Shown piece by piece: positions 18,536 through 35,252 of a DNA stretch of 64,000 bases. Source of the stretch: a virus; the IMG/VR virus record IMGVR_UViG_3300045988_164457, positions 1 through 64,000 of that record. One strand, written 5' to 3'. Below the pieces are notes generated by a model. The model did not search any database. It worked only from the letters and a program-made list of their open reading frames with translations, and was not told the DNA's origin. Within the stretch, counting starts at the first letter, position 1. The number at the start of each line of letters is the position of its first letter. Made by a program: the position numbers and the translations under genes.

Positions 18536-20665
18536 ATGGCTAAAGATACAGACGGTCTGCTTTTAACGGCGAGTTTGGATATTGAAGGAACTTATGAAAA
18601 GATAAAGAAAGAAGATATCACAAAACTCAATGCCAAATTAGCCAATGATAATTCTGCAAGAGTGAAGATTGTCGGTGGACTTGACTTAAATAAAACACAG
18701 TCCCTTATACAATCTCAGATAGCTACTATTAGTAAGAATTTAAAACTGAATATTGGTCAGATTGATACAAGTAGTTTAAATACAGCACTTTCTAATGTTC
18801 AGAATAAAGTTATTGGTACTAATAATGGATTAACTATTAAGCCTACAGTTGATGGCAAAATTATTGAGGACACTGATGCTCTTATCAAAGCGGTTGTTGG
18901 GAAATTACAGCAGTTAAATAACATTGACCTTAATGGATTTAAGAATAATCTTAAAAATCTTGGATTTTCAGGAAAAGATGTTACAAGTGCTGCGGATGAA
19001 TTAGTTCAAGCTTTAAAGCTTACACCTGAAAATAAAAGTGTTATTATAGATAGCTATCAGAAACTTATGGATAGTATTAGAAATACTATTAAGAGTGATA
19101 GTATGGTGGCTGATAAAAACTTTGATAACAGACTTATAATGTCTATTTATCAGGCTATTAGTGAATATAAAAATCTTGGACAGACTGCTACACAGTCGGC
19201 TAAAGAAACACAAACTGTTACTAAAGCTACCACAGAAATAATTGATAAGGAAACACGGGCTGTAAAAATCCAAACAGATGCCTATGAAGACCTTGCATTA
19301 GCAAAAAAGTCAGTTATAACTGATGCTTCTGACAATCAACTTGCAAAGACTGAAACTTATTCTGATAGAGCAACTGGGAGAAGCAAAACTATAGTTTATG
19401 ATTCAGAAGATAATGAACAGGTCATTCGTTATTCTGAAAATATTAATAAAGTAGTTATAGCACAAGAAAGAGCTAACGCATCAGCAATTAAACTTGAATC
19501 TACTTATGCTAAAATAAAAAGTCGTATAGAGGATTTAAATGCTTCGAAACCTATAAAAGACGAAAGTAATAAGGAAAAATTAGCAGAGCAATATATTAAA
19601 GTAGAACAAGCTATTGATGCAGTTAAAAATGCTGATAGTACAACTTTGGTTGTAATGAAAGCAAATGCTGAAAAGGAAATCTCTACTTTGCAGGATTTGG
19701 AGCGTGCTTTCAGAAATGCTGAAAATGCGGCAGAAGAATTGAGAACTCGTGATGTCTCGACTATTAAAACTGAAAATATTCAAAAACTTGCTCAATTTGG
19801 AGCTAAAATTCAAGGCAGTAAAGTTCCTATATCAGAAATGAAAGCTGATCTTGATGAGTTAAATGCAGCAATTCAAAATATTGGAACTAATGATACCGAA
19901 GGTCTCACCAAATTTCTTAATCAATTTGACATTGCAAGAGCTAAATTTTCTGCATTAAATCAACAAATGATAACTGATAATTCAATGCAGAGACAAGCAC
20001 AACAGGCAGAACTGCTTACGCAACGTATAAAGAAACTTACTGCTGAAATCAATACATATAAAGACTCCAATTCAAAAGCAATACAAAGCAATCAGCTTAC
20101 ATCAAATGGAAAAACTTTTTCTCAAGAGATTGAGAATATGCTTTTACAGCTTTCACATTGTGCTAATAATGATGATTTCCAAAAAATTGCCGCAAATTTT
20201 AGAAACATTAAAGCAGAAGCTAAATCTTTAGGTCTTGAAGGTGGAACTATTTTTGATAAGCTTTGGGCTAACTTAAAGAAATTTTCATCTTGGATGAGTT
20301 TAACTTCCTTAGTATCTACTTTCGTAATGGATATAAGAAATGCCATTACAGAACTAAAAGAAATAGATACTATTTTAACTGAGATTTCTAAGACTTCTGA
20401 TTTAACAACTGAGGCTCTCGCTAAACTTGGCAAAACATCATTTGAATCAGCAAGCAAGTATGGCAAAAAAGCAAGTGACTATTTAACTGGTGTGCAGGAA
20501 ATGTATAGAGCTGGTTTCCAAAATGCTCCTGAAATGTCTGAACTTTCTATACTTGCACAAGCAGCTGGTGATTTAACTTCTGATGCTGCTAATGACTATC
20601 TTATAGCGACCGATGCCGCCTATGATCTGGGTGGCAGTATTGAGAAATTAAATGCAGTTTTGGAT
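18536..20665 (+). CDS. Tail tape-measure protein, exon 1
   Basis: Coiled-coil-rich 710 aa ending in the conserved TMP core (LGKTSFESASKYGKKASDYLTGVQEMYRAGF...ANDYLIATDAAYDLGGSIEKLNAVLD). The frame stops at a TAA that I place at the intron start. Confidence 0.8.
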
Positions 20666-22125
20666 TAACATAAAAGTCCTCATATATAGAAATATATATG
20701 GTTGAAGTCTGCTTTTATCGGAAAAAACGTAGAGATACATAATTCCGAGGATAAGACTATATAAAATAAGGTGGAAAGGAATACAGTGACTCAAAAATGT
20801 ATTTGTTGCCACAAAGAAAAGGATATTAAATTATTTAAAGAAAAATGCAAAACTTGTAAATTATGTAAATGGTTTAAAAAGCATCAATTAAATATTCCTG
20901 ATGACTGGAATAAAGACGATGTAAAGTATGTAATTGAACAAATACACGATTCTCATACAAGTTACTTAAATGATATAGCCAAAGATTTAGATAGACCTTT
21001 AAATGACATAATAATTTTATTAAAAGATAAATTAGAATTACATAACATAAGAAATCAAAAAGTTAGAATAAAAGTTATATGCGATAATTGTGGTAAAGAG
21101 TTTGAAATTAGTCCATATAAATTAAAAATAAACAATTTTAACTTTTGCACACACGAATGTTATAGTAAATATAGAAGTAAATATTATGTTGGAGAAAAGG
21201 CATCTGTCTATACTAAAACAAAATGTGAATGTGATAATTGTCACAAGGAAATTTTAATTCCTAAAAACAAATTAAAAGCTGTTAATGCTGAAGGAATCAG
21301 TCATAATTTTTGTAATCATAAATGTTATAGTGAATTTAGAAGTAAATATTACGTTGGGAATAAATTATATAATACAGGAATACATTTTTCAGATGAACAA
21401 CGTGAGCAATGCAGAATTAATACTGCCAAATGTTATGCCGATGGAAAAATCAAACGTAATACTAAACCTCAAATTATTATTAACTCATTGTTAAATGATA
21501 TGGATATTAAATATCAAAATGAAAAAATATACAAATACTATTCGGTAGATAATTATTTAATTGATTCTAATTTAATTATAGAAGTAATGGGAGATTATTT
21601 TCATGCCAATCCTTCAAAATACAATAATTATAACCAGTTGAATAAAATGCAACAAAAAGATGTTATTCGAGATAAGAGAAAACACACATATATAAAAAAA
21701 TATTATAATATAGAAATTTTATATTTGTGGGAATCCGATATATTGAATAATTTAAGTTTATGTAAAGCACTGATTGCTGAATATATTTCTAATAATGGGG
21801 TTTTAAAGGATTATAATTCCTTCAATTATCAATTAGACACATTGACAAATAAATTAGTAAAAAATAAAAATATAAATCCTTATTTTATATAGAATCCGTA
21901 ACGAGTAAGTTGTTATACGGTGACGTATAGCACACGCAGACCACAAATATGTATAGCATATTTCTACATTAATTGTAGCCTAACGTTAAAACGAGGGTGA
22001 TGATATACTCTGCTCTCACGCAATAATCTAACAATGAAACGTGAGAATTAAGAAGAAATTCTTAATCGCCATATAGATAATATGGTCAGTAATTTATAAT
22101 TATTATAAATGAAAGTAACAGCAGG
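20666..22125 (+). mobile_element. Group-I-like intron 1 in the TMP gene (boundaries inferred)
   Basis: The TMP core motif resumes in frame at ~22126 (SQNYITNNAAVSMQDMADATSEAA...). Exon end GGAT (20662-65) can pair with GTCC 20676-79, giving a U.G at the splice site. The intron ends in G (22125). It contains an endonuclease ORF and a 233-nt structured 3' part. Confidence 0.6.
20771..21892 (+). CDS. Intron-encoded homing endonuclease, Vsr/EDxHD-like PD-(D/E)xK with zinc-ribbon repeats
   Basis: 373 aa. Duplicated C..CGKEF....C...CYSKYRSKYYVG modules. C-terminal NLIIEVMGDYFHANP...DKRKHTYIKK..NIEILYLWE resembles Vsr-type nucleases. Confidence 0.6.
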   Translation: MERNTVTQKCICCHKEKDIKLFKEKCKTCKLCKWFKKHQLNIPDDWNKDDVKYVIEQIHDSHTSYLNDIAKDLDRPLNDIIILLKDKLELHNIRNQKVRIKVICDNCGKEFEISPYKLKINNFNFCTHECYSKYRSKYYVGEKASVYTKTKCECDNCHKEILIPKNKLKAVNAEGISHNFCNHKCYSEFRSKYYVGNKLYNTGIHFSDEQREQCRINTAKCYADGKIKRNTKPQIIINSLLNDMDIKYQNEKIYKYYSVDNYLIDSNLIIEVMGDYFHANPSKYNNYNQLNKMQQKDVIRDKRKHTYIKKYYNIEILYLWESDILNNLSLCKALIAEYISNNGVLKDYNSFNYQLDTLTNKLVKNKNINPYFI

Positions 22126-22509
22126 AGTCAAAACTACATTACAAATAATGCAGCTGTAAGTATGCAGGATATGGCTGATGCTACATCTGAAGCTGCTTCT
22201 GTTGCTGCTCAGTATGGAGTTAATATTGATGAACTGTCATCTCTTATAGCGGTAGTTGTTTCTAAAACAAGAGAGTCTGGTTCTGAAGTTGGTAATGCGT
22301 TGAAAGCCCTCTTCATCAACTTACAGGATACTACGTCTAAGCCTATTCAAGAGGCATTTGATTCTGTAAATATTTCAATGACTGAAATGGTAAATGGTTC
22401 TGAAAAACTCAAAACACCTATTGAGTTAATTAAAGAATTATCGGCTGCATTTACAAGTCTTGATGAGGGTGATACTCGAAGAGCTAATATTTTAAGTGAT
22501 ATTGGTGGT
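22126..22509 (+). CDS. Tail tape-measure protein, exon 2
   Basis: ...TNNAAVSMQDMADATSEAASVAAQYGVNIDELSSLIAVVVSKTRESGSEVGNALKALFINLQD...RRANILSDIGG is the classic TMP domain continuation. The frame is open from 22093. Confidence 0.65.
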
Positions 22510-22972
22510 AGATTTTACCACAATGTACAGAAATGTGCATAAAGAACAAATTTAAATGCAGGTAATGAGTAAGAGCCTTACACCACAATAGCGGAGAAAT
22601 CACGCTATGACGGTACGAAAGTAGAAAAAACGTAAGGATTGTATATGGTCAAAAGCCTAAGTACAGTAACAATCTCTGTTCTTGCAACGAAGTACCCTAA
22701 CGTTATACTCTGACCAAGAGTTAGTTAAGCCGAGGGTAAGCGCTCAACGACCATTCCCCGATGAGGGGTTATGACAATAAAATAAAGGTGGAAATCCCGA
22801 ATAGTCATAACATTAGAAGTACGGCTTAATCGCAAATGAAGTGAGTGAAAAACTCTTAAACGGAAAAGGTTTGACTGCTGTTGCATAAGCAACGTGGTTA
22901 AGAAATGGTCTGAACTCTTATCGAAAGATAAGGAACATGATTAGATTTTGCGAATCTAATTTAACATAATTG
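22510..22972 (+). ncRNA. ORF-less group-I-like intron 2 in the TMP gene (boundaries inferred)
   Basis: 463 nt, GC-richer and hairpin-dense, with no ORF. The exon frame runs into a stop after 10 junk codons. An in-frame TAA at 22967-69 forces the 3' splice site to 22970 or later, and the only G there is 22972. The join gives DIGG|KYHANTLAAIL, a typical TMP sequence. Confidence 0.55.
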
Positions 22973-23344
22973 AAATATCACGCTAACACATTAGCAGCGA
23001 TACTTTCTGACTTAGATAGTTATTACAAAATGCTCGATTACTATTCTAAGGGTCAAGGGTCGGCTACAGAGGAAGCACAAAAGACTGCTGAATCTTGGGA
23101 AGGTATGTGGAACAAGATGGAGAACAAATGGACGGAGTTTGTAAATGAATTTGCTAATTCCGACTTGTTTAAGTCTTTAATTGAAAGTGCAACTATATTT
23201 ATTGATACTCTTTCAGATGCTTCATCTCCACTCAATTTTATACTAACCCAAATAGCTAACATAATTGAATTGACATCAAAATTAACTGACAAAATAGGTT
23301 TAATTCCTACTATACTTGGTGGATTAACCCTTAAAAACGTAGGT
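22973..23344 (+). CDS. Tail tape-measure protein, exon 3 (3' boundary 23340-23344 uncertain)
   Basis: KYHANTLAAILSDLDSYYKMLDYYSKGQGSATEEAQKTAESWEGMWNKMENKWTEFVNEF...IPTILGGLTLKNVG. The ORF then reads 24 junk-like codons into structured RNA before its stop at 23416. Confidence 0.6.
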
Positions 23345-23760
23345 GAACTAAGTCTTAAATACGCCCGTTCTTATGCTACCACAGACATAAAGCATAGGGA
23401 ATGTAACACGTTTTAAAATAAGGTTGTCAAACTGCTGGAAAATGCTAAAGCTGTGTGACTACTCATAACAAGGCATTATGAGAGTGAGGAAACTCGGAAA
23501 CAACAACACAGATAGACTATGCTGAAACAAAAGCTTGATTTTATAATAGAATCAAGTGCTACGGTCTGCATACTATATAATAGTATAACAATGTATAATC
23601 AGCAACCAAGCCCTGTCGTGAGACACGGAAGGCTCAACGAGTAGATGACAACTGCCTTGTGGTAAGGTAAAGGTGTACTCTAACCTATGGATAACTCCCA
23701 TAGTAGTTCCAAAGCAGATTATCCCTGCTTAGTTTTGACACTATGATAGATAGTGTAGGG
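23345..23760 (+). ncRNA. Structured RNA, 5' domain of the third TMP intervening sequence (intron-core-like)
   Basis: GC-richer with many short hairpins: CTCATAA/TTATGAG, CTTGATT/AATCAAG, CTATGG/CCATAG, AAGCAG/CTGCTT, CACTAT/ATAGTG. Shares GCTCAACGA (23632-40) ... ATGACAA with intron 2 (22742-50). ACGTTTT 23408-14 is complementary to exon end AAAACGT 23334-40. Confidence 0.4.
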
Positions 23761-23888
23761 ATAAATCTATCAAAAATTACATATTTGTAAATATATCAAA
23801 AGATTTGTTAAAGTTTACTTTTTATTTACAATTTGTGCAAATTTACACATAACTTATAACTTTACGCTTTTGCTATGTCATTTTCAAC

Positions 23889-23926
23889 AATTCAACAGAC
23901 TTTCAACGTTGAAAGATTGTTGAATT
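23889..23926. promoter_or_regulatory. 38-bp imperfect palindrome (candidate operator)
   Basis: AATTCAACAGACTTTCAAC|GTTGAAAGATTGTTGAATT. The central 16 bp CTTTCAACGTTGAAAG are perfect. There are 2 mismatches in the outer arms. TTCAAC occurs 4 times locally. Confidence 0.5.
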
Positions 23927-23997
23927 ATCTTATTGACAAATACAAAAGTTCGTCAAAATGTTAAAATATTAAACGTTTACCTTTAGATGTTTTGTAT

Positions 23998-24026
23998 TTG
24001 ACACATATTTTAAATTTAATTATAAT
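23998..24026 (+). promoter_or_regulatory. Consensus sigma-A promoter (TTGACA-17-TATAAT)
   Basis: TTGACA 23998-24003, 17-nt spacer, TATAAT 24021-26. Confidence 0.6.
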
Positions 24027-24032
24027 ATATAT

Positions 24033-24180
24033 AGAGAGTATAACAATTTAGCTCTCGTCTCAATTTCATTTAGAAAGGAGAAATATTAATTATGAGGATT
24101 GATAGAATAAAAGAAATAGATAGATAAGCGAATATTGATTCTTATTGCCACTTTCTATTTTAGAATGTGGCAATTTTTAT
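24033..24180 (+). ncRNA. Short transcript (~150 nt) carrying an 11-codon ORF (24092-24127, MRIDRIKEIDR) and its own terminator
   Basis: Predicted from the promoter at 23998-24026, RBS GAAAGGAG plus ATG 24092, and terminator ATTGCCAC/GTGGCAAT plus T5 at 24144-24180. Confidence 0.35.
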
Positions 24181-24185
24181 AAAAT

Positions 24186-24216
24186 AAACCACTTATGTTA
24201 TGCAAATAAGTGGTTT
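24186..24216 (-). terminator. Terminator of the leftward membrane-protein gene
   Basis: AAACCACTTAT / ATAAGTGGTTT stem. T-rich on the minus strand after the stem. Confidence 0.5.
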
Positions 24217-24226
24217 AATCATTATA

Positions 24227-25047
24227 TTATAAAATTTCTTTCATTTTGATGTTTGTTTGTTGCTTATTATTTCTTAATTCCAAACAAAATTCTTCAATGG
24301 TAGGATATGACTTGCCTTTTCCTGCTGCATTTCTAAAGGACTGTAGAGCGTCTTTCCCAGAGTCAGGATCGTAAAGGAAATAAAATTGCTCTTCAATAAT
24401 ATCTCTATCTACTATTCCCTGCTTCCACGAAATTAAAAGAGCTTCTAAGAAATTTAAATATTGTATTATATACCATCTTATTTCGTTGCATTGTACAACA
24501 TCAATAGTATACATACGTGAACTGCTATCATTAAAATTTTTATCATAAACATGGCAGTCATGTGCCATATTTTCAGGTTTAATAGTGGTTTCAAAACATT
24601 TTTTACACGAAGATTTTTATAGCTTGAACAAATGGGGCATAATTCTTTTTTAGTTTCAAAATTAACTTCAAATGGCTGTTTATTATATAGGTTTGCACAC
24701 TGTTCGTGATTAAAACCTTCAACTATACGAACCGCATATGTAGTCTCCCATCGTAAAGATTCAGACCATTTAATCATGTAATCAACTGTCTTTTCTCTAC
24801 GCTTTTCATCGTGTCTTGCTCTTGAGTCGTTTTTAGCAACTACAAGTTGTATTACCAGTAAAACTAATGACAGAGAACCGTAAGCAGAAATCATTAAAGA
24901 GATTATCTCATAATCTCTCATATAGGTTTCTGGTATTTTAATACACAATAACACACATACAACAATAACTGCAACAGTAAGAATACCCAATGTTACTGCT
25001 ATGGCGGTATTCCAATTAAATTCTCGTTTGTTATTTTCTGTTTTCAT
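24227..25047 (-). CDS. Two-TM membrane protein with a DUF4760-like C domain, split over two frames at an A6 run (frameshift, pseudogene or -1 recoding)
   Basis: ORF 24478-25047 (N-terminal TM helices, ...CPICSSYKNLRVK) and ORF 24227-24568 (...CFETTIKPENMAHDCHVYD...YLNFLEALLISWKQGIVDRDIIEEQF) overlap. Frame B is open from 24616. Slippery A_AAA_AAT lies at 24604-24598. Confidence 0.5.
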
Positions 25048-25213
25048 AATAATCCTCCTTATTCAGTCATAGTGTATTGTTATACTATAATTATACAATC
25101 AGTCTCTAACAAAATCTATACGCTTAATTTCTAAATTTTATATTGTATTATTGTATATATTAACACAAAGAGACATTATATGCCACCGTAAAGTTTGTAT
25201 TTTTCCTATACTC

Positions 25214-25242
25214 TTGACATTTTGCTCTGAATATGTTAATAT
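25214..25242 (+). promoter_or_regulatory. Sigma-A-type promoter for the 25267 gene
   Basis: TTGACA 25214-19, 17-nt spacer, TAATAT 25237-42 preceded by TGT. Confidence 0.5.
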
Positions 25243-25266
25243 TATCTCAAATAACTACATTTTGAG

Positions 25267-26037
25267 GTGGACTATATGAAAAGACAGATTGTTTCGTTTA
25301 TGATGGCAATTTCTTTAATTGTGACATCAACATCTCCTGTTATAGCTCACAGTGGTAGAACCGATAGCAATGGTGGGCACAGAGATAATAAGAACAAGAG
25401 CGGGCTTGGATATTATCATTATCATTGTGGAGGACATCCTGCTCATCTACACGAAAATGGTGTTTGTCCGTATAAAAGCGGTTCAAGTTCTAACAATTCA
25501 AATTCAAGTAAATCAAACACATCATACAAGAATGAGAATATATCGTCATCCAAATCTAAGGCTGAGTGGATCGGAGACAAATATTGGACTGGCGATAGCT
25601 TTGCAAGAGGCTGGCAGAAAATAGACGGTTACACTTATTACTTTGATGATTACGGCGATAAAATGATAGGTTGGGCAAATGACGAAGAAGATAATACCTA
25701 TTATTTTGATGTTAAAGGCAGAATGAGTGTCGGTTGGAAAGAAATAGGTAATCATACATATTTCTTTAGTACAAATGGCTATATGCGTACAGGTTTACGT
25801 AAAACAGAAGGTAAAACATACTATTTTAACAAAGATGGTGTGATGGTTACTGGAAAAGTTAGATTTGGAGATAATATTCGCTATTTTGGTTCAGATGGGG
25901 CTATGAAAAAGGGCTGGGGCAAGATTGGCAATGATACATATTACTTCAAAAACAAAGACGGATATATGGCTACTGGAAAACTTAAAATTGATGATAAGGT
26001 TTATGAATTTGGAGATGATGGTAAGCTTATAATGTAG
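25267..26037 (+). CDS. Secreted YHYH-domain protein with clostridial-type cell-wall-binding (CW_binding_1-like) repeats
   Basis: Signal peptide MKRQIVSFMMAISLIVTSTSPVIA. HSGRTDSNGGHRDNKNKSGLGYYHYHCGGHPAHLH motif. At least 6 repeats of the GW.KI.G.TYYF...G.M.TG type. Confidence 0.7.
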   Translation: MDYMKRQIVSFMMAISLIVTSTSPVIAHSGRTDSNGGHRDNKNKSGLGYYHYHCGGHPAHLHENGVCPYKSGSSSNNSNSSKSNTSYKNENISSSKSKAEWIGDKYWTGDSFARGWQKIDGYTYYFDDYGDKMIGWANDEEDNTYYFDVKGRMSVGWKEIGNHTYFFSTNGYMRTGLRKTEGKTYYFNKDGVMVTGKVRFGDNIRYFGSDGAMKKGWGKIGNDTYYFKNKDGYMATGKLKIDDKVYEFGDDGKLIM

Positions 26038-26066
26038 TTAATTATAAAAAGCCTCTTTACTTTAGG

Positions 26067-26104
26067 AAGTCACCCATCTGAACAAGGTGGGTGACTTTGT
26101 TTAT
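26067..26104 (+). terminator. Terminator after the CWB-repeat gene
   Basis: AAGTCACCC / GGGTGACTT stem plus a T-rich tail. Confidence 0.6.
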
Positions 26105-26124
26105 GTTATCAATATAAAAAAGCC

Positions 26125-26160
26125 AAAGACCTACTCTTAAATTAGAGCAGGTCTTTCTTT
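26125..26160. terminator. Bidirectional hairpin terminator (serves the leftward BRO gene)
   Basis: AAAGACCTACTCT / AGAGCAGGTCTTT with A-run upstream and T-run downstream. Confidence 0.55.
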
Positions 26161-26273
26161 ATATCCTTTACAACTTAGTATCTTATACCATATTCACCGT
26201 TATGTATTTGAGTAAGTATTGGCACTGTCACAGGCTGAATACCAAGTTTAACAAGCGACACATCGGATTTCCA

Positions 26274-27083
26274 CTAATTTATAGCTGAAAGCTTCTGCAC
26301 AAGTATCTTACGGTAATTTTCAAGATTACGTGGAGAGTCATTGCTTTCAATAAGGTATGTAAGTGCTTCAATGCCTTTGATTTCACGGCGTACATATTCC
26401 ATTACGGAACGTACTCCTGCCTGAACAACATATCCCCTTTTCTCTATCATAAAGCTTGGGGTCTTACTGTTGTCAAGTTCATAATATGAAACAATGTGTG
26501 ATAAACCCATATTATAGATTACAAACAAAGATTTCTTGCATTTGAATAACTGAGGATTTTCTTTGTTGTATTCTTTGAGTTCATCACCAGTCAGTAAAGA
26601 ATAATCTCTATCTGGCATTAAGGCTGATTTGATATGATTGTATAGAGTAACTGAATTTATACCATAAATATTTGAGATATCGGAAGCAGTGAGAACAGGT
26701 CTGCCGTGAAATGTTTTCTCTATGTAGGCGTATGGAAGTGAGGGTGCTTTGGGTACAGTATAATTACCTGTCTTTCTGATTGATGGCAAGACTTCGTTAG
26801 TAACCCATTTGCGGAATATTCTGCACTTGTCTGTCCGAGCTTCAAGCATAAAATCATAGAGCTGAGACTCTGTTAAATACTGTTTCACACCGTGTGAAAC
26901 CAACGTAATTTCGGCATTTTCAGCAGTTTTAAGTATTCTTTCTTTGTAGGGATAAACATTTCCTTTAGCTTTGGCTACATATCCTAAAGCCTTACCAGTT
27001 GAGTAAATCTCGAATAAGGGTTCGCCATTTTCATTTTGAATGACCTCTACATCATTGCCTTCAAAATTCATAATCTCTTGCAT
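26274..27083 (-). CDS. BRO-N family antirepressor-like protein
   Basis: N-terminus FEGNDVEVIQNENGEPLFEIYSTGKALGY...LTESQLYDFMLEARTDKCRIFRKWVTNEVLPSIRKTGNY fits the Bro-N pattern. RBS AAGGAG. Confidence 0.75.
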   Translation of the reverse strand: MQEIMNFEGNDVEVIQNENGEPLFEIYSTGKALGYVAKAKGNVYPYKERILKTAENAEITLVSHGVKQYLTESQLYDFMLEARTDKCRIFRKWVTNEVLPSIRKTGNYTVPKAPSLPYAYIEKTFHGRPVLTASDISNIYGINSVTLYNHIKSALMPDRDYSLLTGDELKEYNKENPQLFKCKKSLFVIYNMGLSHIVSYYELDNSKTPSFMIEKRGYVVQAGVRSVMEYVRREIKGIEALTYLIESNDSPRNLENYRKILVQKLSAIN

Positions 27084-27108
27084 AAATAAAACTCCTTATC
27101 AATTTGAC

Positions 27109-27138
27109 TTGACAAGAACTCTCTATCTATGGTACAAT
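27109..27138 (+). promoter_or_regulatory. Antisense sigma-A promoter in the RHH-BRO intercistronic region (extended -10)
   Basis: TTGACA 27109-14, 18-nt spacer, TGgTACAAT ending at 27138. Confidence 0.55.
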
Positions 27139-27144
27139 GTATTT

Positions 27145-27217
27145 GATAGAAAAATCTGTCAGATATGTAACGGTAATGTATTACTTTCCACGGTGCAACA
27201 TTGCCGTTATTTATTTT
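27145..27217 (+). ncRNA. Predicted ~70-nt antisense RNA (sar-like)
   Basis: Starts about 7 nt after the -10. Ends at hairpin AACGGTAATG 27169-78 / CATTGCCGTT 27199-208 plus ATTTATTTT. Antisense to the RHH 3' end and the RHH-BRO spacer. Confidence 0.4.
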
Positions 27218-27380
27218 CTCGGAGAACAAGTTGTATACCTTTTCTCACAACATCTGTACGTGTAACATTGTTGTCTTTGCAATATTTGATTAATTTATCA
27301 TTTGTGTCTTTATCAATTCTTGCTTTGATCTCAATGATTAAAGGCTTTTCAACTTGTGGTCTACCTATTTTGGGTGACAT
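27207..27380 (-). CDS. Ribbon-helix-helix (Arc/CopG-like) regulator, 57 aa
   Basis: ATG 27380 after AGGTGA. MSPKIGRPQVEKPLIIEIKARIDKDTNDKLIKYCKDNNVTRTDVVRKGIQLVL shows the beta-strand plus two-helix RHH pattern. Confidence 0.6.
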   Translation of the reverse strand: MSPKIGRPQVEKPLIIEIKARIDKDTNDKLIKYCKDNNVTRTDVVRKGIQLVLRENK

Positions 27381-27396
27381 TTTTTCACCTACTTTC

Positions 27397-27439
27397 TGTG
27401 CCACAATTATATTATAGTTTATGTGCCACAAAAAGTCAA
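27397..27439 (-). promoter_or_regulatory. Leftward promoter of the RHH-BRO operon with two 10-bp direct-repeat operators
   Basis: On the minus strand: TTGACT (27439-34), 17-nt spacer, TATAAT (27416-11). TTGTGGCACA occurs twice (plus-strand 27422-31 inside the spacer and 27397-406 over the predicted start site). Confidence 0.55.
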
Positions 27440-27508
27440 TAGTCACTTTTATTTTTGGTAAAATGCACAAAAGAATAACGTTTATTTATGATAAATTAAA
27501 ATTACCCC

Positions 27509-27536
27509 TTGACAAAAAAAAATAAAGTGGTATAAT
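27509..27536 (+). promoter_or_regulatory. Rightward consensus promoter (TTGACA-16-TGgTATAAT), divergent from the RHH promoter
   Basis: TTGACA 27509-14, TATAAT 27531-36 with TG at -15/-14. Confidence 0.6.
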
Positions 27537-27542
27537 AATAAT

Positions 27543-27655
27543 TGAAAAATATCATATTACATCCTTATGTTGAATTTGATTAAGGCTTCCTAATTCTATT
27601 TAATCAAGTACAACAGGAAGCACCCACAGGTACTGGCATATCTGTGGGTGCTTTT
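27543..27655 (+). ncRNA. Predicted ~110-nt non-coding RNA
   Basis: No RBS-preceded ORF. Internal hairpin GCTTCCT/AGGAAGC (~27586-27620). Terminator AAGCACCCACAG 27618-29 / CTGTGGGTGCTT 27642-53 plus TTTT. Confidence 0.4.
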
Positions 27656-27714
27656 GCGTACTATAACGGTTTCCTTTTTTCTGCTCGTACATACTGATAT
27701 TATAGCAAGGAAAA

Positions 27715-27936
27715 TTACAACTGAGACTGAGTTATTGGTATCGGTATATTTTGCTGAATAGCTTCAGTCTTAATTGTAGGTAAAACAATGTTTGTGAGCA
27801 TTGTTAATGTGATTGTCAAAAGCTGTAATATCCTTTTGAGTTTTGGGCGTTTAATCCCATATAATCCCCAAATGTAGATTACAGTGCATATAAGTAACGA
27901 TATAAAGTTTAAAATTAACGTCCAGAAAAATACCAT
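27715..27936 (-). CDS. Small two-TM membrane protein (73 aa)
   Basis: MVFFWTLILNFISLLICTVIYIWGLYGIKRPKLKRILQLLTITLTMLTNIVLPTI... RBS AAAGGA at 8 nt. Convergent with the 27543-27655 RNA. Confidence 0.45.
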   Translation of the reverse strand: MVFFWTLILNFISLLICTVIYIWGLYGIKRPKLKRILQLLTITLTMLTNIVLPTIKTEAIQQNIPIPITQSQL

Positions 27937-28125
27937 AGACTCATCCTTTCGATTTTGAGCGGTGCAGAAAAGAAAGCCTATATCAGCAATTAAATTATAC
28001 TATATTTTCTTCCAAAATAACTACCTGCAAATTTAACAAATTATTTTCAATCATTTATGCACATTTACCACTTAAATTATAGTTTTATCAACGTTGCTAT
28101 ATTGTAGATTTAACAATACAAATTC

Positions 28126-28154
28126 TTGACAATTTTAAATGTATAAGGTATAAT
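28126..28154 (+). promoter_or_regulatory. Perfect consensus sigma-A promoter
   Basis: TTGACA 28126-31, 17-nt spacer, TATAAT 28149-54. Confidence 0.65.
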
Positions 28155-28185
28155 TATGTTATTAATTATATAGGAGATGTTGATA

Positions 28186-28395
28186 ATGGAATTTAACAAA
28201 AATAAAACTTATAACGGCAACGGCATAAATGCAGATGATGTATATGATTATGTGACAGAAGGTGTAGGAAATATTCAACATAATAGAGAAAATTTTGCAT
28301 ATGTTTCTAATAATGTAGAAGAAAGACCAACCCCCAAAACACCCATAAATAACAATAGCAACAACAATAACAACAATAATAATAGTAATGAATAG
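28186..28395 (+). CDS. Small protein with a poly-Asn tail
   Basis: ATG 28186, 9 nt after AGGAG. Ends ...PINNNSNNNNNNNNSNE. Confidence 0.4.
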   Translation: MEFNKNKTYNGNGINADDVYDYVTEGVGNIQHNRENFAYVSNNVEERPTPKTPINNNSNNNNNNNNSNE

Positions 28396-28410
28396 AAGGA
28401 GGAATAATTA

Positions 28411-29007
28411 TTGTCAGACATTTTTAATATTTTACCCGATATTGTAATTTATATTGTATTAGGTTATATCTGTCTCCATATGTATAGAATTACACGAATT
28501 GTTAAGAAATCAGATGATTTTGAACATATTCTGACAGAATCAATAGTTGTAGGCTTTATTATAAAAAATGTCATATCTCTAATACCTTTTACGTTTGGAG
28601 AATACATTGATACCATCGGAATGATAATATCAAGCGCTGCAATAGGTTTTGGGGTAGCCAAAATTCTTGAAACCCCTATAGCAGATAAAGTTATTAATAT
28701 TCTAAAAATCAAGCATACAAAGTTTAAGTATATGTGGCAAAACATTGATGATCCTAATTATGCCATATTTATTGATGCAACTAACCCCGAAACTCACATT
28801 AGATATTTTGGGCAGGTTGTGATGTATGAAGAATTTGAACGATTTCCAATAATTCAAATTTGCAAATATATGGCTTGGAAAGATAATGACTTATTATTTA
28901 ACTATTCAGATGACCCAACTCAAACAGTATTAATAGATACGTCCAAATACACAGAGATAGATATCATTTATCAAAAGGATAGTAGGGTAATCAAGCGCTG
29001 GAAATAA
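28411..29007 (+). CDS. Membrane protein (3 TM N-terminal domain plus soluble C domain), Abi/exclusion-like architecture
   Basis: TTG start after AAGGAGGA. 198 aa. TM helices in residues ~8-95, then a beta-rich C domain (AIFIDATNPETHIRYFGQVVMYEEFERFPIIQI...). Confidence 0.45.
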   Translation: MSDIFNILPDIVIYIVLGYICLHMYRITRIVKKSDDFEHILTESIVVGFIIKNVISLIPFTFGEYIDTIGMIISSAAIGFGVAKILETPIADKVINILKIKHTKFKYMWQNIDDPNYAIFIDATNPETHIRYFGQVVMYEEFERFPIIQICKYMAWKDNDLLFNYSDDPTQTVLIDTSKYTEIDIIYQKDSRVIKRWK

Positions 29008-29010
29008 TAT

Positions 29011-29044
29011 AAAAGAACCTTTGAATTTCTTCAAAGGTTCTTTT
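29011..29044 (+). terminator. Terminator
   Basis: AAAAGAACCTTTGAA / TTCAAAGGTTCTTTT perfect 15-bp stem. Confidence 0.7.
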
Positions 29045-29161
29045 ATATTTATAATTATTAAAACTTGCTACCGCAATTATTACACTACGTCAATACCATA
29101 TTACACATTTCGCTATAGCATACAAAACATTTAATAAACACTAATACAATACAAAATATTC

Positions 29162-29190
29162 TTGACAAATATTGCTATTAGTGGTATTAT
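29162..29190 (+). promoter_or_regulatory. Sigma-A promoter (TTGACA-17-TGgTATTAT)
   Basis: TTGACA 29162-67, TATTAT 29185-90 with upstream TG. Confidence 0.55.
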
Positions 29191-29263
29191 ATAGATAAGT
29201 AGATATTAGATACTTAATATGGTGCAAAAGTAAAAACGTAAATGATTATGTAAGGAGTATATT

Positions 29264-29695
29264 ATGTCTTTTTATAAGTATTGCCCTAAATGTGGAGATA
29301 TAACTTGTGTCCAAGAAGTGGAAAATTGCAATTTTTGTAACGAAGCGTACATAGTAACTGACTATGAATATAGTTTAAATGACCTTTTTGGCGACATAAA
29401 TAAACCAAAAGAAATCTTTGAGAAATATGTAAAGCCCAATCCACTATTCGATGAAGAACTCTACAACAAAAGGATGGGAGTAGAAAAAGCTCTGCAAGAG
29501 GCTACATCAAACCGACTGCGTATGGAAAAACAACAAGCTCAAAGAGCTAATGTCCCTAAATGTCCAACCTGTGGTTCAACAAATGTAGAAAAAATATCTA
29601 CAACTCAGAAAGCTTTTGGTTTTGCTTTGGTTGGAGTGTTTAGTAGTAATCTCGGTAAAACTATGCACTGCAAGAATTGCGGATATAAGTGGTAA
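29264..29695 (+). CDS. Double zinc-ribbon protein with a C-terminal hydrophobic segment
   Basis: CPKCG...CNFC at the N-terminus. CPTCGS...CKNCGYKW at the C-terminus flanking FGFALVGVFSS. RBS AAGGAG. Confidence 0.5.
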   Translation: MSFYKYCPKCGDITCVQEVENCNFCNEAYIVTDYEYSLNDLFGDINKPKEIFEKYVKPNPLFDEELYNKRMGVEKALQEATSNRLRMEKQQAQRANVPKCPTCGSTNVEKISTTQKAFGFALVGVFSSNLGKTMHCKNCGYKW

Positions 29696-29703
29696 TTATG
29701 GCA

Positions 29704-29740
29704 AAAGACCTGTTCTTAATTAACAGGTCTTTATTTGTGT
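29704..29740 (+). terminator. Terminator at the right end of the island
   Basis: AAAGACCTGTT / AACAGGTCTTT plus a T-rich tail. Confidence 0.65.
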
Positions 29741-29834
29741 TTAAATCTTTTTAATAGTATATTGATTTTGCTAAATTATATCGTAGCATGTTTGAAAGTC
29801 AACATTTTCATAATAATTCAAAACGTTAATATGG

Positions 29835-32800
29835 AAATATGGTATTTAAGACTGTTGACGGACACATAACTAATATATTTAATAAGGTCGATAAACTTAA
29901 TACGGGATTTGAACTTACAAATGATGAAATACAAAAAATTGTTAATCGATTTAATGACTTTAATTCTAAACAATCCTTTGGTCAGGAATATACAGATTTC
30001 ATTGCCGAAATGACCAATAGAAACTTTAATGTTTCCCAGATGTTCTCTGATCTTGCAAAACAAGGCGCTTCTGCAAGGGCAAGCATTGAGGGTTTCTATG
30101 CTGCAATTCTTGATGGTAATACTAAAGGTTTTGCCAATGTAAAATCAACTATAGCGTTGTTCAATCAGGCACAACAGTCTGGAGCAGATAACGCAAAGGC
30201 ATTTGCAAAAGCAGTTGGTCAGAGTAATACTCAGCTCGGTAATTATTTGGGCGGTCTTAACGGAGCTAAGGCATCTCTTGTTGGTTATGGTACGCAATTA
30301 GCGATTACAACAGCAAAAACTATAGGTCTTCGAGCTGTCACTATGGCTCTTAATGCTGCTTTGTCTTTTGGTGTTTTAACTGTTGTTAGTTTATTTGTTA
30401 GTAAGCTTGATGAATGGATTGTAACTCAAAAAGAGCTTACAGAACAAACAAAAGAATCTGCCGACAAGGCAAAAGAACAAGCGGCTGCGTTTTCTGATTT
30501 AAAAACTCAGTATCTGGCAATTATTGATAGTGCCGATGATGAGGCTACAAAAACAGAAAAACTTAATGAGTGGAAAAACACACTTATTGAAACATATGGC
30601 TTTGAAAAGAAAGCTCTTGAAAGTCTTAATACTGAACGTGAAAAAGGTATTGAATTGCTTGAACAAGAGTCTAAAGCTGGTATAAAATCAACTTATCAAA
30701 ATTATCTTGTTGAAAATAAAAATGAAATAGAAAAAGCCAAGAAAAAATTAGGACAGCTTGGTGAATTTAATATTTTTACAGGCTCACAGATTGATGTTGA
30801 TGAAAATGCCGATTTTGGCGTCGCCAAAAACCTTCAAAAGTATTTTGATGTAAAATCAGGGGATTATTTTGGTGAGTTAAATTATAAATTAAGTATCAAT
30901 TTTGACGATGCGGTTGATGAACTTGATCAATTAACCAAAATTCAAGATGAAATAAATAATATTGAATCGGAAAGAAAAGTAATTGGCAAGGGTTTAACAG
31001 AAGATGAAAAGTTAATTCGTCAATATGTTGAGAGTGAAATAAGTAGAATTGAAAAATTAAATGATAAATATTTATCTACCTATCAATCATCCGCTGAAGC
31101 TGGTGCTTGGGTAAAATTTAATACCGATGCCAATCAAAAAGCCTTAGAAGCCGCAGGAAAGGATGGCTATTCAAGTTGGAGGAATGCTTTTTTAAAGCAA
31201 GCTGAATCCCCTGCCGAACAGCGAGAAATGGAAAAAATTCTTGCTGAGAATGTTCCTGACTTAGAAACTGCTTATAAAACTCTTGAAACTCGAAGAAATA
31301 ATCTTGAACTTGCTAAATCAAAATTCGGCATAAGTGATTTGCTTAATTCAGAAAGTGCGAGAATGAAGGCTGTTTTCGTAAACTCTCTTGATGATACAGA
31401 CCTCGATATTCTTGTAAACAAAAGCGAAGACCCATTTAAAAATGGTATCGAAGGTGCTAAAAAGGCTATTGAAGATTTTAAGGCTGACCCTAAAAACCAA
31501 ATCAATGTTGAAACTGACACTTCTTCGCTTGAAGAAGCAACTAAAAAACTTGAAGATTATTCTAAGTCTATAAGTGATTACACAAAAGCTCAAAAAACTA
31601 TTACAGACGCATATAATGAACAGACTAAATATGGACAACTCGCAGCAGACACAATTCAATCTTTGATTGATGCTGGATACGCTGAAGCTCTTGTTGTAAA
31701 TGATGAAACTGGTGCTGTAACATTAAATACATCTGCTGTAGAAATGTTAAATAATCAAAAGAAAGTATCTCTTTTACTTGATGCTCAAAAGCAAAAATCC
31801 GAATTGACAAAACAGCTTGATGATGAAAAATCGAAAATTGATTCACTCACAAGCAGTCTTATGACTAATAATGAAGAAAAGAAGAAGTCATATGTTGCGG
31901 ATTTGCTTGCTGCTCAAGCGAATAAAGAACAGATTGAATCACAGATTGCAATGTATGATGCTTTAATGTCTTCTTTAGATGCTCCTGACTTTGGAACTGA
32001 AAATAAGGAAGACCCTGCTACTGTAAAACAATTCAAGAAAGATAATAAAGAAAAGAAACATCTTCTTGAAATGGAACAGATTACAGAGCAAGAGTATTAT
32101 GATTGGCTTGACAGTAAAAGCCATCGTGTTTATGGTAATCTTGCTGATTATCAAGATGAGCTTTGGAAGCACGAAGAAGAGGTTTATAACTGGAGACAGG
32201 AACAAGAACAAAAGCTCTTCGACAAGAAAATTGACAACCTTGAAAAGCTGGCTGACAAGGCACTTGATAATTACAAGGACGGAGACGGTAACGAGCTTAC
32301 AGTTACAGCAAGTTTTGATTATGCACGTGAACAGATAAACAAGGCTATTACCGAAACTCAGGCAAGAATTGACGGTATCAGAAACGGTACTATAAGTGGT
32401 GACACTGACGATATAGAGGCACTTATAGATGACCTTGACAGTCTTTATGACAAGTTTATTGATATCAATAAGAAGGAAATCGAATCAGAAAAGGATTATA
32501 TCAGTGAACTCAAAGACGATTATTCTGATATGATGGATGAGCGTATTGATAAGGTTGATGAGCTTTCTGATAAGATTGAAAAGAGCTATGACAAGCAAAT
32601 AGATGCTATTGACAAACAAATAGATGCTCTTGAAAAAGTCAAGGACACTGAGGATAGAATCAAGAAAATCAAGGACGCTCAACTTGCTGTTAAGGAAAAG
32701 GAGCAAGCTCTTGACGAAGCTAAACGTGAAGATGCTAAGAACAATTACGTTTACTTTGACGGAACTGGAATGTCTGTACAGACTTCTGATGAAAATCAGA

Positions 32801-33804
32801 AAAAGGCACAGGAGGAGCTTGATGAAAGTAAGAAAGACCTTGAAGAAGCTTATCGTGATGAACAAATCAGTGTACTTAAAGACCAAAAGGATATCCTTGA
32901 GGAACAGAAAGACACTGCTAAAGATTATTACGATAACGTAAAGGACAATCTTGAAAAACAGAAAACACAGGGTGAAAAGACCTATGAAGCTGTTGAGAAG
33001 ATTTATGAGCAGCTTGGCGGTGACAAGAAACAGACTTCTTCCAACGCCGAACTTGTTAAAAAGCTTTCTAAGTCAGGTGATATATCTAAGGCAATGTCTG
33101 AATTGTCTGATACTGAACGTCAGAAAGCTATTGATACAGGCGTTGTCAAGATACAGCCTAACGGTGATTATACTTTTGATTATTCTGCCTTTGAAAAGTA
33201 TTCAAGTACGGTAGATGACAATACACTTGCTACACAGGATTTAACTTCTATTCTTAAAGACATAGTTACTCAGACTAATACTGATAATAAGGATAAGACT
33301 GATAATTCTATGGTTGCAGGTGGCTTTAATCTTGTTGCTGACCCTAAGACAGGCAAACTTACTAAGAAACAAGTTATGGTCAATGGTGAAGTTGTTGAGG
33401 GATTAGGTCACAAGGTCTATGCTACTTCTAAGGAAGAGTGGCAAGGACATAATAACAGTGAAAGGACAAGCAAGGGAAGCTTTGCTGGTTATGATACGTT
33501 TATTGACTTTATGAGGGCTGTTAGTGCTGGAAAGGTGGATATTAGTCCTCTTACTAATGCGTTCAATAGTGACTATAATCCTATTGTTGACAGAATGAAT
33601 AAGTCTGTGAGTGATACCATTAACAATGTTTCTAACAGCAATGTTAATAATAACATCAATAACAAACCTGTTGTAAATCTTACTGTAAATGTTGAAGGCA
33701 GTGCTGATAAAAAGACTGTCGAAGCATTTAGGAATGTGGTCACTAAAGAAATTGGCACTGCTTTTGATGAATTTGGAAAAGCAGTACGTAATGCTAAAGT
33801 TTAA
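29835..33804 (+). CDS. Tail tape-measure protein, exon 4 / C-terminal part (5' boundary 29835-29842 uncertain)
   Basis: The frame is open only from 29830 (TAA at 27-29). There is no convincing RBS before ATG 29839. About 1320 aa with a hydrophobic TMP-type segment (LAITTAKTIGLRAVTMALNAALSFGVLTVVSLFV) and long coiled coils. Confidence 0.65.
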
Positions 33805-33890: not shown

Positions 33891-34319
33891 TTAAAGTGAA
33901 TAAGTTCTTATTGCAGAAACAATACTATCCGTGTACCAATTTACAGTTGTAGTTGCAACGGAGCTAACTTCTGTTGGCATATTTACATTTCCACGAGGTT
34001 TGATTGCAATGATAGGTTTTCCCATTGCTACTGCGCAATCTAATTCATACTGCATCCATTCACGATTATTATAGTACATTCCCGATATAACTAAAACACA
34101 ATTTACAGGTCTGATTTTTCTTAAAATAGCATCTTTAATTTGTGTTTTATTGGTAACGGAAGTACCATCTAAATTTATAAGAGGATTGTCTTTTGGAGCT
34201 GAATAATTATAATACTTAAAATTAGGAGCTTCTTCCAATAAATCATTTAAGTGAATGTAATCATCGCCGTATTTCCAAGCATGACTAATAAATAAATGGT
34301 ATGGCTTTAACTCTGGCAT
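33891..34319 (-). CDS. TIR-like domain protein (DUF1863 / ThsB-like)
   Basis: ATG 34319 (GAAAGG upstream). MPELKPYHLFISHAWKYGDDY...QIKDAILRKIRPVNCVLVISGMYYNNREWMQYELDCAVAMGKPIIAIKP matches the TIR-like pattern (FISH..., S.W...E). The longer track ORF to 34457 is an artefactual extension. Confidence 0.65.
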   Translation of the reverse strand: MPELKPYHLFISHAWKYGDDYIHLNDLLEEAPNFKYYNYSAPKDNPLINLDGTSVTNKTQIKDAILRKIRPVNCVLVISGMYYNNREWMQYELDCAVAMGKPIIAIKPRGNVNMPTEVSSVATTTVNWYTDSIVSAIRTYSL

Positions 34320-34376
34320 ATAAATTACAACCTTTCTAAAATAAAAATTTAAACAATTCCATAAGGAGGAATTATT

Positions 34377-34577
34377 TTGAATACTAATGTAAAAAAATAT
34401 CGTAAGAAGCCTGTTGTAATTGAGGCATATCAAACTGACAAGGAAATTGTTATTCACACATTAGAGGGCGATATGATAGCATCTGTTGGGGATTATATTA
34501 TCACGGGTGTGAATGGAGAACAATACCCTTGCAAACCTGATATCTTTGAAAAGACTTACGAATCTGTAGAAGATTGA
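34377..34577 (+). CDS. PGDYG-like small phage protein (opposite strand, between the SLATT and TIR genes)
   Basis: TTG start 8 nt after [21 protein letters not shown]...[27 protein letters not shown] resembles the PGDYG family motif. Confidence 0.5.
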
Positions 34578-35053
34578 CTTACTTTGCTTTGCCATGTTGA
34601 AAATTCTTTAGTAAAATACTGCTCACAATTACTAACTAAGGTATCAAATGCCACGTCTGGGTTGTTAGAATTGTAGGGCGGTATTTTATTTATAAATTTT
34701 GAAGCTTCACTTTTCAGCATCTCGCAATTCATGCGATATTGAACCCATAAGTCTTTAAAGGTGTTTATATTTATTATGTAGGTGATTACCGAGACGGCTG
34801 AACCAGCAATGGCAATTAATATATTAACTAATGGTTTTTCTTCAAAAAGTGTTAATATTGGAATTGAAGAAGATATTATAACAGATATGACAGATAAAAC
34901 TTTGTAGTATTTTTGATTATGTTTTGCTTTTTTATCATACCATTGTATTTGGTCAAGCAATCTGTTCTTTAAATATCTTTGTTGTTTTTCAGTGTATTCA
35001 CTGTAATCTATCGGAAGGTCTATTATGTAGTTTTCATTTGATTTTTTACACAT
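34556..35053 (-). CDS. SLATT / DUF4231-like two-TM effector protein
   Basis: [40 protein letters not shown]...[44 protein letters not shown]...PPY shows W..k...y, then 2 TM helices, then W..YR..cE.L..E..., the signature I recall for this family. ATG 35053 has GGAG at 7 nt (35065 is also possible). Confidence 0.55.
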
Positions 35054-35252
35054 TTTATGCTCCATTTTTCACTGTAACGAGTTGTATTGTATAAGTATAT
35101 TGTATGCTATATTAAGAATAATTTCAAGTGAAATTTTGTATATTATGGCAAATTCCATAATATTAACAAGTTTTAACAAAATATATTGTTGATAAGCGAC
35201 AAAAGCATATAGTTGAAATATAGACTATTAAGAATATAAGGAAAGGATTGTT

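Follow-up and report, generated by a model that had tools for sequence, protein, structure and literature searches.

How can a tail gene remain of use to a phage when more than six kilobases of separately transcribed genes lie within its coding sequence? This question is raised by a stretch of viral DNA of 64,000 nucleotides (IMG/VR virus record IMGVR_UViG_3300045988_164457, positions 1 to 64,000; hereafter the window), in which the gene for the tape-measure protein (TMP) is interrupted by an island of accessory genes. An initial annotation of the letters had proposed either a cargo-carrying intron or an essential gene cut in two. We consider it probable, with modest confidence, that positions 23345-29841 are a single group I intron in the TMP gene of an SPbeta-like gut Firmicutes phage and that this intron is spliced from the late transcript. 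The locus combines a ribozyme fold, a guide sequence complementary to both exons, conserved intron ends and variable cargo, and the downstream half of the gene has no translation start signal. From these features we infer that splicing occurs, that it occurs in cis and how the cargo may be expressed.

The interrupted tape-measure gene and its empty sites

The window represents the late region of a temperate phage that is kin to the Bacillus phage SPbeta at the level of protein families: the Pfam families YomN, YonB, YonD, YomW and YomU were found in the syntenic genes of relatives. A megablast search against sequenced phages gave no nucleotide match to the window, and two scans of a species-genome collection revealed no relatives. 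The loci of the relatives are labelled L002, L003 and so on (P0064 is L004). In the window, the TMP coding sequence consists of four pieces:

18536-20665, TMP exon 1
20666-22125, intron 1, with an HNH-like open reading frame (ORF) at 20771-21892
22126-22509, TMP exon 2
22510-22972, intron 2, no ORF
22973-23344, + strand, TMP exon 3; 124 codons, ending ...LKNVG, last base U (tblastn; uninterrupted homologues)
29842-33804, + strand, TMP exon 4; 1320 codons plus stop, the first 12 nt being the P10 target (tblastn)

Exons 1 to 3 match positions 65-707, 729-841 and 840-927 of phrog_4211 in succession and thus belong to one TMP family. Moreover, exon 2, exon 3 and the large downstream ORF can be aligned, in this order, with the one-piece TMP of the Enterocloster phage CB473P1 (1509 amino acids). 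The predicted spliced TMP would comprise 710 + 128 + 124 + 1320 = 2282 amino acids; SPbeta YomI has 2285. Introns 1 and 2 are present in some close relatives and precisely absent from others, from which the exon junctions could be recovered. Such a sporadic occurrence is expected for mobile introns. The Rfam scores of both introns were poor, with an odd 27-bit match in intron 2. By contrast, the third intervening sequence is present in all close relatives and does not show the sporadic presence and absence that characterises mobile introns.

A protein search uncovered two classes of close relatives. About 60 protein clusters of 1300-1320 amino acids match the downstream ORF only, and about 50 clusters of 900-1200 amino acids carry PF10145 and stop where exon 3 stops. 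Contigs with both classes always have 2.0-7.5 kb between the two genes. Uninterrupted homologues were found only at 39-46% identity (L004, L029 and L046-48), and they read ...LKNVG/VFKVVD... and ...FKNIG/VFKVID... across the junction (marked by the slash). According to tblastn with the exon peptides, exon 3 ends at 23344 and exon 4 begins at 29842. Because the intron-less homologues are continuous at the same point, the intervening sequence spans exactly 23345-29841. The search for an empty site that the initial annotation had envisaged thus yielded a contiguous TMP in distant homologues, and its placement of the island within a third TMP intervening sequence proved to be real. The intervening sequence ends in G (29841) and exon 3 ends in U, so that the expected ligated junction is ...AAAAACGTAGGT/GTATTTAAGACT..., with the junction 30-mer CTTAAAAACGTAGGTGTATTTAAGACTGTT. 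A split intein was excluded since the uninterrupted homologues join G directly to V and leave no room for intein residues. Ribosomal bypass was also considered and set aside.

Ribozyme core, guide sequence and intron ends

The first ~430 nt of the intervening sequence are 86-100% identical in every relative, and the sequence beyond differs. Positions 23345-23775 have a GC content of 0.33-0.36 versus 0.235-0.30 in the island downstream, and they fold better than all 100 shuffled versions (z = -3.58), in agreement with the ~420 nt of GC-richer, hairpin-dense RNA that the initial annotation had recognised at the 5' end. The sequence that it had reported as common to this region and intron 2 could likewise be found in both introns, namely GCTCAACGA (23632-40) and ATGACAA (23645-51). 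An ORF runs from exon 3 into this region in a frame that differs between relatives, indicating that the region is conserved at the nucleotide level. A covariance-model search of the kind suggested by the initial annotation was informative: when 23320-23800 (481 nt) was searched alone, the Rfam model Intron_gpI (RF00028) aligned over its full length (model 1-253) to 23362-23703 with 35.7 bits and an E-value of 1.5e-7, which corresponds to ~2e-5 if scaled to the 64-kb window. A hand-derived pairing model, which agrees with the Rfam alignment, was tested on 19 relatives. Standard pairs are formed in 97.4% of the cells, and 20 pairs change on both sides, as compared to 8.5 +/- 1.4 in shuffles and 0-5 with slid partners. 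These changes include one pair in P3 and two pairs in P7, which closes the catalytic pseudoknot; the compensatory P7 pairs occur in L003 and L032. Furthermore, RNAalifold independently recovers P2, P6, P7, P8, P9 and P9.1. As judged from its sequence, the 5' region is a complete group I ribozyme core from P1 to P9.2, with the conserved P3-P9 core and the P3/P7 pseudoknot that are typical of group I introns. The entire core lies upstream of the island, and the cargo is located 3' of P9.2. The RNA elements are as follows:

23351-23365, + strand, internal guide AGUCUUAAAUAC-GCC, complement of the ligated junction
23370-77 / 23391-98, + strand, P2 (hairpin 23370-98); both sides change in 7 of 8 pairs
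23408-23416, + strand, ACGUUUU (97% paired with exon 3, invariant) and stop codon TAA (23414-16)
23423-23703, + strand, catalytic core (RF00028, pair counts, RNAalifold)
23423-29 / 23646-52, P3
23433-38 / 23599-604, P4
23451-593, P5 extension, three hairpins
23610-33, P6/P6a
23639-43 / 23676-80, P7, with the conserved pair G23639-C23680
23655-67, P8
23668-75, J8/7
23685-703, P9
23712-30, P9.1
23732-38, GUUUUGA, unpaired between P9.1 and P9.2, complementary to the loop of the 3' hairpin
23745-71, P9.2
23790-29797, variable cargo island; content differs between relatives
29805-29841, + strand, 3' terminal element: 13-bp hairpin (29805-37) with loop UCAAAAC (29818-24), tail UAU and terminal G (29841)

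Two other pairings were tried and rejected. The pairing of ACACGUUU with AAAGGUGU as P3 is broken without compensation in L003 and L032. The motif GTCAAC (29798-803) was dismissed as the 3' strand of P7 because P7 closes within the 5' fragment with two compensatory pairs, and because in most relatives GTCAAY overlaps the -35 box of the promoter from which the zinc-ribbon gene, described below, is read on the minus strand.

The guide at 23351-65 is the reverse complement of the ligated junction GGU/GUAUUUAAGACU. Over this 15-mer, the only mismatch is a G.U wobble located exactly at U23344 of the 5' splice site. Positions 23351-62 pair with the first 12 nt of exon 4 and form a 12-bp P10, and 23363-65 pair with the last 3 nt of exon 3 and form a 3-bp P1. 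The guide therefore has the arrangement known from group I introns, in which the U of the 5' exon pairs with G in P1 and the 3' exon pairs in the adjacent P10. In 64 kb, GTATTTAAGACT has only two occurrences, one at the start of exon 4 and one as reverse complement in the guide. Where exon 4 starts with GTATTTAAGGTC (L007, L015 and L016), both changes are wobble-compatible with the guide. Moreover, nearly all loci with the intron have the same GTATTTAAG where exon 4 begins (ATA in one locus), and it is kept even at a protein identity of 24% (L045); the intron-less genes use GTG/AAA codons at this place. The initial annotation had taken ACGTTTT (23408-14) for a P1-like segment. Its complementarity to AAAACGT (23334-40) in exon 3 holds, and both sides are invariant, but its identity with P1 does not, since the true exon-aligning guide is 23351-65. 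The pairing of ACGUUUU with exon 3 could nevertheless add seven pairs to the weak P1, with P2 emerging between the two segments, and the in-frame TAA at 23414-16 would release ribosomes ahead of the core.

Two loci have a different guide. In L035 (12382-12420), it reads UUCUUAAAUAU-GCC with two substitutions, which would match exon 4 variants that occur elsewhere, namely A at +1 (L011) and A at +11 (L045 and L008). The exon 4 of L035 itself lies off the contig, and a pattern scan gave chance matches only. L034 (12668-13270) contains a non-homologous intervening sequence at the same TMP site (...AAAAACGTTGGT/). The guide of this sequence, GCCAAC, is clear and forms 6 bp, including a G.U at the splice site, and a DDE transposase is encoded behind the sequence. 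A search of this variant with Rfam gave no match.

The ~90 nt before exon 4, which the initial annotation had described as unstructured, turned out to contain a conserved and covarying hairpin at 29805-29837. Conservation between different islands is confined to the ~45 nt that immediately precede exon 4. In the relatives, the hairpin has 12-14 bp and an invariant UCAAAAC loop and is followed by 3-5 nt and the final G. Among 13 distinct versions, 93.5% of the cells are paired (74.5% in shuffled versions), and both sides change in 8 of 13 pairs. The presence of G.U pairs places the hairpin on the + strand RNA. G is the last base in all 20 distinct junctions, as expected for the omega G of group I introns. 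The loop UCAAAAC perfectly complements GUUUUGA (23732-38), a stretch that is kept in all relatives (GUUUUG in L003), and we propose that this pairing may tether the distant 3' splice site.

Two side observations concern the hairpin. A partial copy of its loop and 3' stem, TAAAAACGTAAATGA (29231-45), is present in the leader of the zinc-ribbon gene of the window and suggests an inversion of this gene through the palindromic hairpin. In L019-L023, L025, L030 and L056, the order is smpB, ssrA (tmRNA), zinc-ribbon gene, 3' hairpin, partial exon 4 and then unrelated DNA. A phage attachment site inside the intron, to which these loci with exon 4 behind the host smpB-ssrA genes had pointed, was rejected: no more than the first ~220 codons of exon 4 are left in these loci, which are prophage remnants. 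The arrangement, which is found in several gut metagenome contigs, represents a prophage remnant fixed beside the tmRNA gene, and a scan for a matching attP only turned up another remnant.

Inspection of the start of exon 4 provided no indication that the downstream half is translated from a signal of its own. A 4-nt Shine-Dalgarno match was found at 0 of 18 distinct junctions (16 have none at all) versus 27 of 34 genes of the window, and the hairpin sits 3-5 nt upstream of the possible start codon. The last three bases of the intron in L008 are TAG, a stop codon in frame, and no start codon occurs within the next ~30 codons, the ORF being otherwise intact. The initial annotation had envisaged that the two ORFs might encode ordinary separate proteins in related phages, with a proper ribosome-binding site; what the relatives show are the same intron ends and no such site. 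Its idea of one intron with the island in a 3' peripheral position is supported by the upstream core, the guide for two exons, the terminal G and the hairpin, the lack of a ribosome-binding site at exon 4 and L008.

Splicing from the late transcript and its rivals

The following mechanism may be proposed. In the lysogen, each cargo unit would be expressed from a sigma-70-type promoter of its own. In the lytic cycle, transcription of the late operon would run straight through the island, and the ribozyme would cleave after U23344. Exon 3 would be held via P1 and perhaps also via the pairing of AAAACGU with ACGUUUU, while the distant 3' splice site would be captured via the 12-bp P10 and perhaps via the pairing of the loop UCAAAAC with GUUUUGA. 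Ligation of exon 3 to exon 4, together with the removal of introns 1 and 2, would then give one TMP of 2282 amino acids. Splicing in cis is favoured because exon 3, the island and exon 4 have the same order and strand in all intact relatives, in spite of the shuffled cargo, and because the downstream tail-fibre and lysis genes need read-through of the island anyway. It is also favoured by what is known from SPbeta, in which 37 late genes form one operon that is transcribed by YonO, a highly processive polymerase with little pausing (PMC5467207). In the same study, the beta flap, on which hairpin-dependent termination relies, is discussed as one of the domains that a minimal polymerase does without (PMC5467207). 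Homologues of YonO occur in the nearest sequenced phages, the Enterocloster phages. Most likely, the stretch between P9.2 and the 3' hairpin tolerates insertions and is now a hot spot for the accumulation and exchange of accessory genes.

Several points weigh against a group I intron that is spliced in cis. The RF00028 score of 35.7 bits is below the gathering score of 50, and Rfam searches of the whole window at the gathering score and of 10.5 kb at E <= 10 found no intron. P1 has only three pairs, and both proposed long-range pairings are invariant and show no covariation. At 17 of 18 junctions, the intron ends in ATG, TTG or GTG, which would permit separate translation too. Moreover, three strong + strand terminators and four genes on the opposite strand are in the path of the transcript. 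No YonO homologue was found in the window or in the fetched loci, so that read-through is deduced from family resemblance only. The first step of splicing could precede transcription of the 3' splice site by one or two minutes, with a risk of losing exon 3, which the ribozyme would need to retain while 6 kb are transcribed.

A rather unlikely alternative is splicing in trans, in which late transcription stops in the island and a separate RNA with the hairpin and exon 4 docks on the exon 3-ribozyme RNA before the exons are ligated. Docking could make use of the 12-bp P10, which is unusually long for a cis intron, and of the invariant 7-nt loop with its perfect complement in the conserved single-stranded stretch of the ribozyme. 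The strong + strand terminators, the last of which (29704-32) is located ~70 nt before the 3' element, the convergent genes and a cargo of up to 7.5 kb would also fit, and an organellar trans-spliced group I intron that is broken downstream of P9.1 is known (PMC3873408). However, a conserved + strand promoter before the hairpin was found neither by eye nor by a promoter scan, and in most relatives the zinc-ribbon gene has its divergent promoter in this space. In every intact relative, the two halves are collinear and on the same strand, for which there would be no need in a trans system, and the downstream late genes need read-through regardless of trans-splicing. According to a literature search, all natural group I introns known to be spliced in trans are organellar; the trans form, if true, would be the first outside of organelles.

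That gene callers give two ORFs in >100 protein clusters, that a possible start codon ends 17 of 18 junctions and that P1 is short could also be explained by a relic intron that is no longer spliced and two TMP polypeptides, the N-terminal part of which would end with 24 intron-encoded residues and the C-terminal part of which would start from the ATG or TTG at the end of the intron. The conservation of ribozyme, guide, hairpin and terminal G with compensatory changes argues for continuing selection on the RNA and makes this quite unlikely, as do the lack of Shine-Dalgarno sequences at the junctions, L008 with its stop codon and missing start codon, the varying frames of the N-part tail, which indicate that it is not selected as protein, and a combined length that fits the one-piece YomI. 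Thus, of the two alternatives of the initial annotation, the evidence favours the cargo-carrying intron over an unspliced, physically split TMP. It is highly improbable that the island is removed from the DNA by site-specific recombination before late expression, like the skin element from sigK. A 7-nt direct repeat, AAAACGT, is indeed located near both ends (23334-40 and 29821-27), and a tyrosine recombinase is encoded at 1541-2569. However, the reading frame would not be restored if the repeats recombined, the 3' copy falls in the loop and stem of the hairpin, and what is conserved at the flanks is a ribozyme and an RNA hairpin that contains G.U pairs. In addition, no island of any relative encodes a recombinase, except for one transposase (L034). 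An assembly artefact joining unrelated DNA between the gene halves, which the initial annotation had raised as a concern, is excluded: only the unusual layout would speak for it, and the same architecture with different cargo is present in >20 independent contigs from different samples and assemblers.

Cargo of the island and comparison with known systems

The initial annotation had counted nine genes in the island. Eight remain, as the frameshifted gene at 24227-25047 had been taken for two ORFs:

24227-25047, - strand, DUF4760-like membrane protein gene, frameshifted into two overlapping ORFs
25267-26037, + strand, choline-binding-repeat protein
26274-27083, - strand, Bro-N / anti-repressor-like protein
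27207-27470, - strand, small repressor-like protein (phrog_876)
27715-27936, - strand, 73-aa hydrophobic protein
28177-29007, + strand, 72-aa and 198-aa proteins
29264-29695, + strand, 143-aa double zinc-ribbon protein

The DUF4760-like gene is intact in L002 and L054 (277 amino acids). A hydrophobic stretch at the N-terminus, read by eye, suggests that the choline-binding-repeat protein may be secreted. The zinc-ribbon gene is the only island gene that is present in every relative, always beside the 3' hairpin. It is on the - strand in most relatives and on the + strand in the window, L003 and L010; its unit in the window (29162-29732) has its own promoter and terminator. The protein has >500 database clusters. 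Searches against Pfam, PHROGs, NCBIfam, PADLOC and PDB sequences, as well as a Foldseek search with its AlphaFold model (pLDDT 83), gave generic zinc-ribbon similarity only and no nuclease motif. The protein might assist splicing or act as a mobility factor, or have neither role. No LAGLIDADG, GIY-YIG, HNH, His-Cys or PD-(D/E)xK family of homing endonucleases was recognised among the island proteins, and PADLOC gave no defence-model match for any island protein of the window.

Perfect TTGACA-17/16-TATAAT promoters are located on the + strand at 23998, 27509 and 28126, and 11/12 matches were found at 27109 and 29162 (+ strand) and at 27439 and 29802 (- strand), so that the at least six near-consensus promoters initially reported stand in substance. 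The number of weak promoter matches (44) is not above that in shuffles (37.9 +/- 5.2). Likewise, the report of at least eight hairpin terminators agrees with ten terminator-like sites, versus 2.4 +/- 1.6 expected by chance; strong + strand sites are at 26066, 29006 and 29704. In >15 related SPbeta-like gut phages, the cargo comprises 1.5-7 kb with differing genes. The islands share modules and vary in content and order. DUF4760, the choline-binding protein and Bro-N with the small repressor are such modules; others are the PemK toxin (L054), the ToxN toxin (L055) and the DDE transposase (L034).

Phage morons and hot spots of accessory or defence genes occur between conserved late genes. In SPbeta itself, an accessory patch of yomJ-yomL and yomM lies immediately before the TMP gene. 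Like such hot spots, the island has conserved flanks and variable, independently transcribed genes with their own promoters and terminators, some of them on the opposite strand and of the toxin, abortive-infection or repressor type. However, the known hot spots lie between genes, whereas the island lies inside a coding sequence and would be harmless only through RNA splicing. The common view of group I introns is that of compact selfish RNAs with at most one homing endonuclease. The nrdD (sunY) group I intron of phage T4, described by Shub et al. in 1988, reportedly has its coding sequence 3' of the core, in the P9 region. As in the window, extra coding sequence follows the core and the 3' splice site is far off, but the T4 intron has a single homing-endonuclease ORF of <1 kb on the intron strand. 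Cargo of the type seen in the window measures 1.5-7 kb and comprises up to eight or nine variable genes on both strands with their own promoters and terminators and without a recognisable homing endonuclease.

TMP genes of Bacillus cereus-group prophages contain group I introns at several positions, some with endonuclease ORFs (PMC2504315). Introns 1 and 2 of the window are ordinary members of this kind. However, the Bacillus cereus-group introns are compact and none has been reported with an accessory island (PMC2504315), unlike the third intron of the window. Intron 2 of the Prasinoderma rnl gene is a mitochondrial trans-spliced group I intron that is broken downstream of P9.1 (PMC3873408). 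Both there and in the window, the break or insertion is 3' of P9.1, the core is on the 5' piece and a short terminal piece adjoins the 3' exon. In contrast to organellar bipartite introns, whose pieces are scattered or on opposite strands, the halves in the window are collinear, and no separate 3' promoter was found. A literature search gave no report of a TMP gene split by an island, of a group I intron with a multi-gene, independently transcribed and variable island or of trans-splicing in phages. The use of the tail end of a group I intron as a parking place for changeable accessory genes is thus, according to this search, an arrangement that has not been described previously.

Since RNA splicing would erase the insertion, the intron would act as a neutral docking site for genes of lysogenic conversion or defence, and the cis and trans forms alike would provide a safe harbour for them within an essential gene. 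It is of interest how a ribozyme could locate a 3' splice site that is 2-7.5 kb away, past terminators and convergent genes; the long P10 and the loop pairing are testable answers. Moreover, the arrangement is a natural candidate for bacterial or phage trans-splicing. It also bears on annotation: on the favoured reading as a cargo-carrying intron, "two tape-measure genes with morons between them" in SPbeta-like gut phages would be one spliced gene.

Further observations concern the surroundings of the intron and its phage family. In several Bacillus SPbeta-like phages (MT601272, ON107264 and others), yonO itself is split in two, once around a GIY-YIG nuclease gene; introns therefore invade key genes of late expression in SPbeta-like phages too. 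The tyrosine recombinase at 1541-2569 resembles SPbeta YomM and is located upstream of the packaging genes. Right after the TMP gene, at 33891-35065 (- strand), a ThsB-like TIR protein and a SLATT/DUF4231 membrane protein are encoded back to back, and this pair is a second accessory or defence-type insert in the late operon that is common to several relatives. At the start of the island, an ORF of 11 codons (24093-24128), which has a good ribosome-binding site, and a hairpin (24146-78) lie downstream of the perfect TTGACA-17-TATAAT promoter at 23998, and positions 23998-24178 could be a unit for a small RNA or a leader peptide. A 21-nt palindrome is located just upstream, at 23889-23926.

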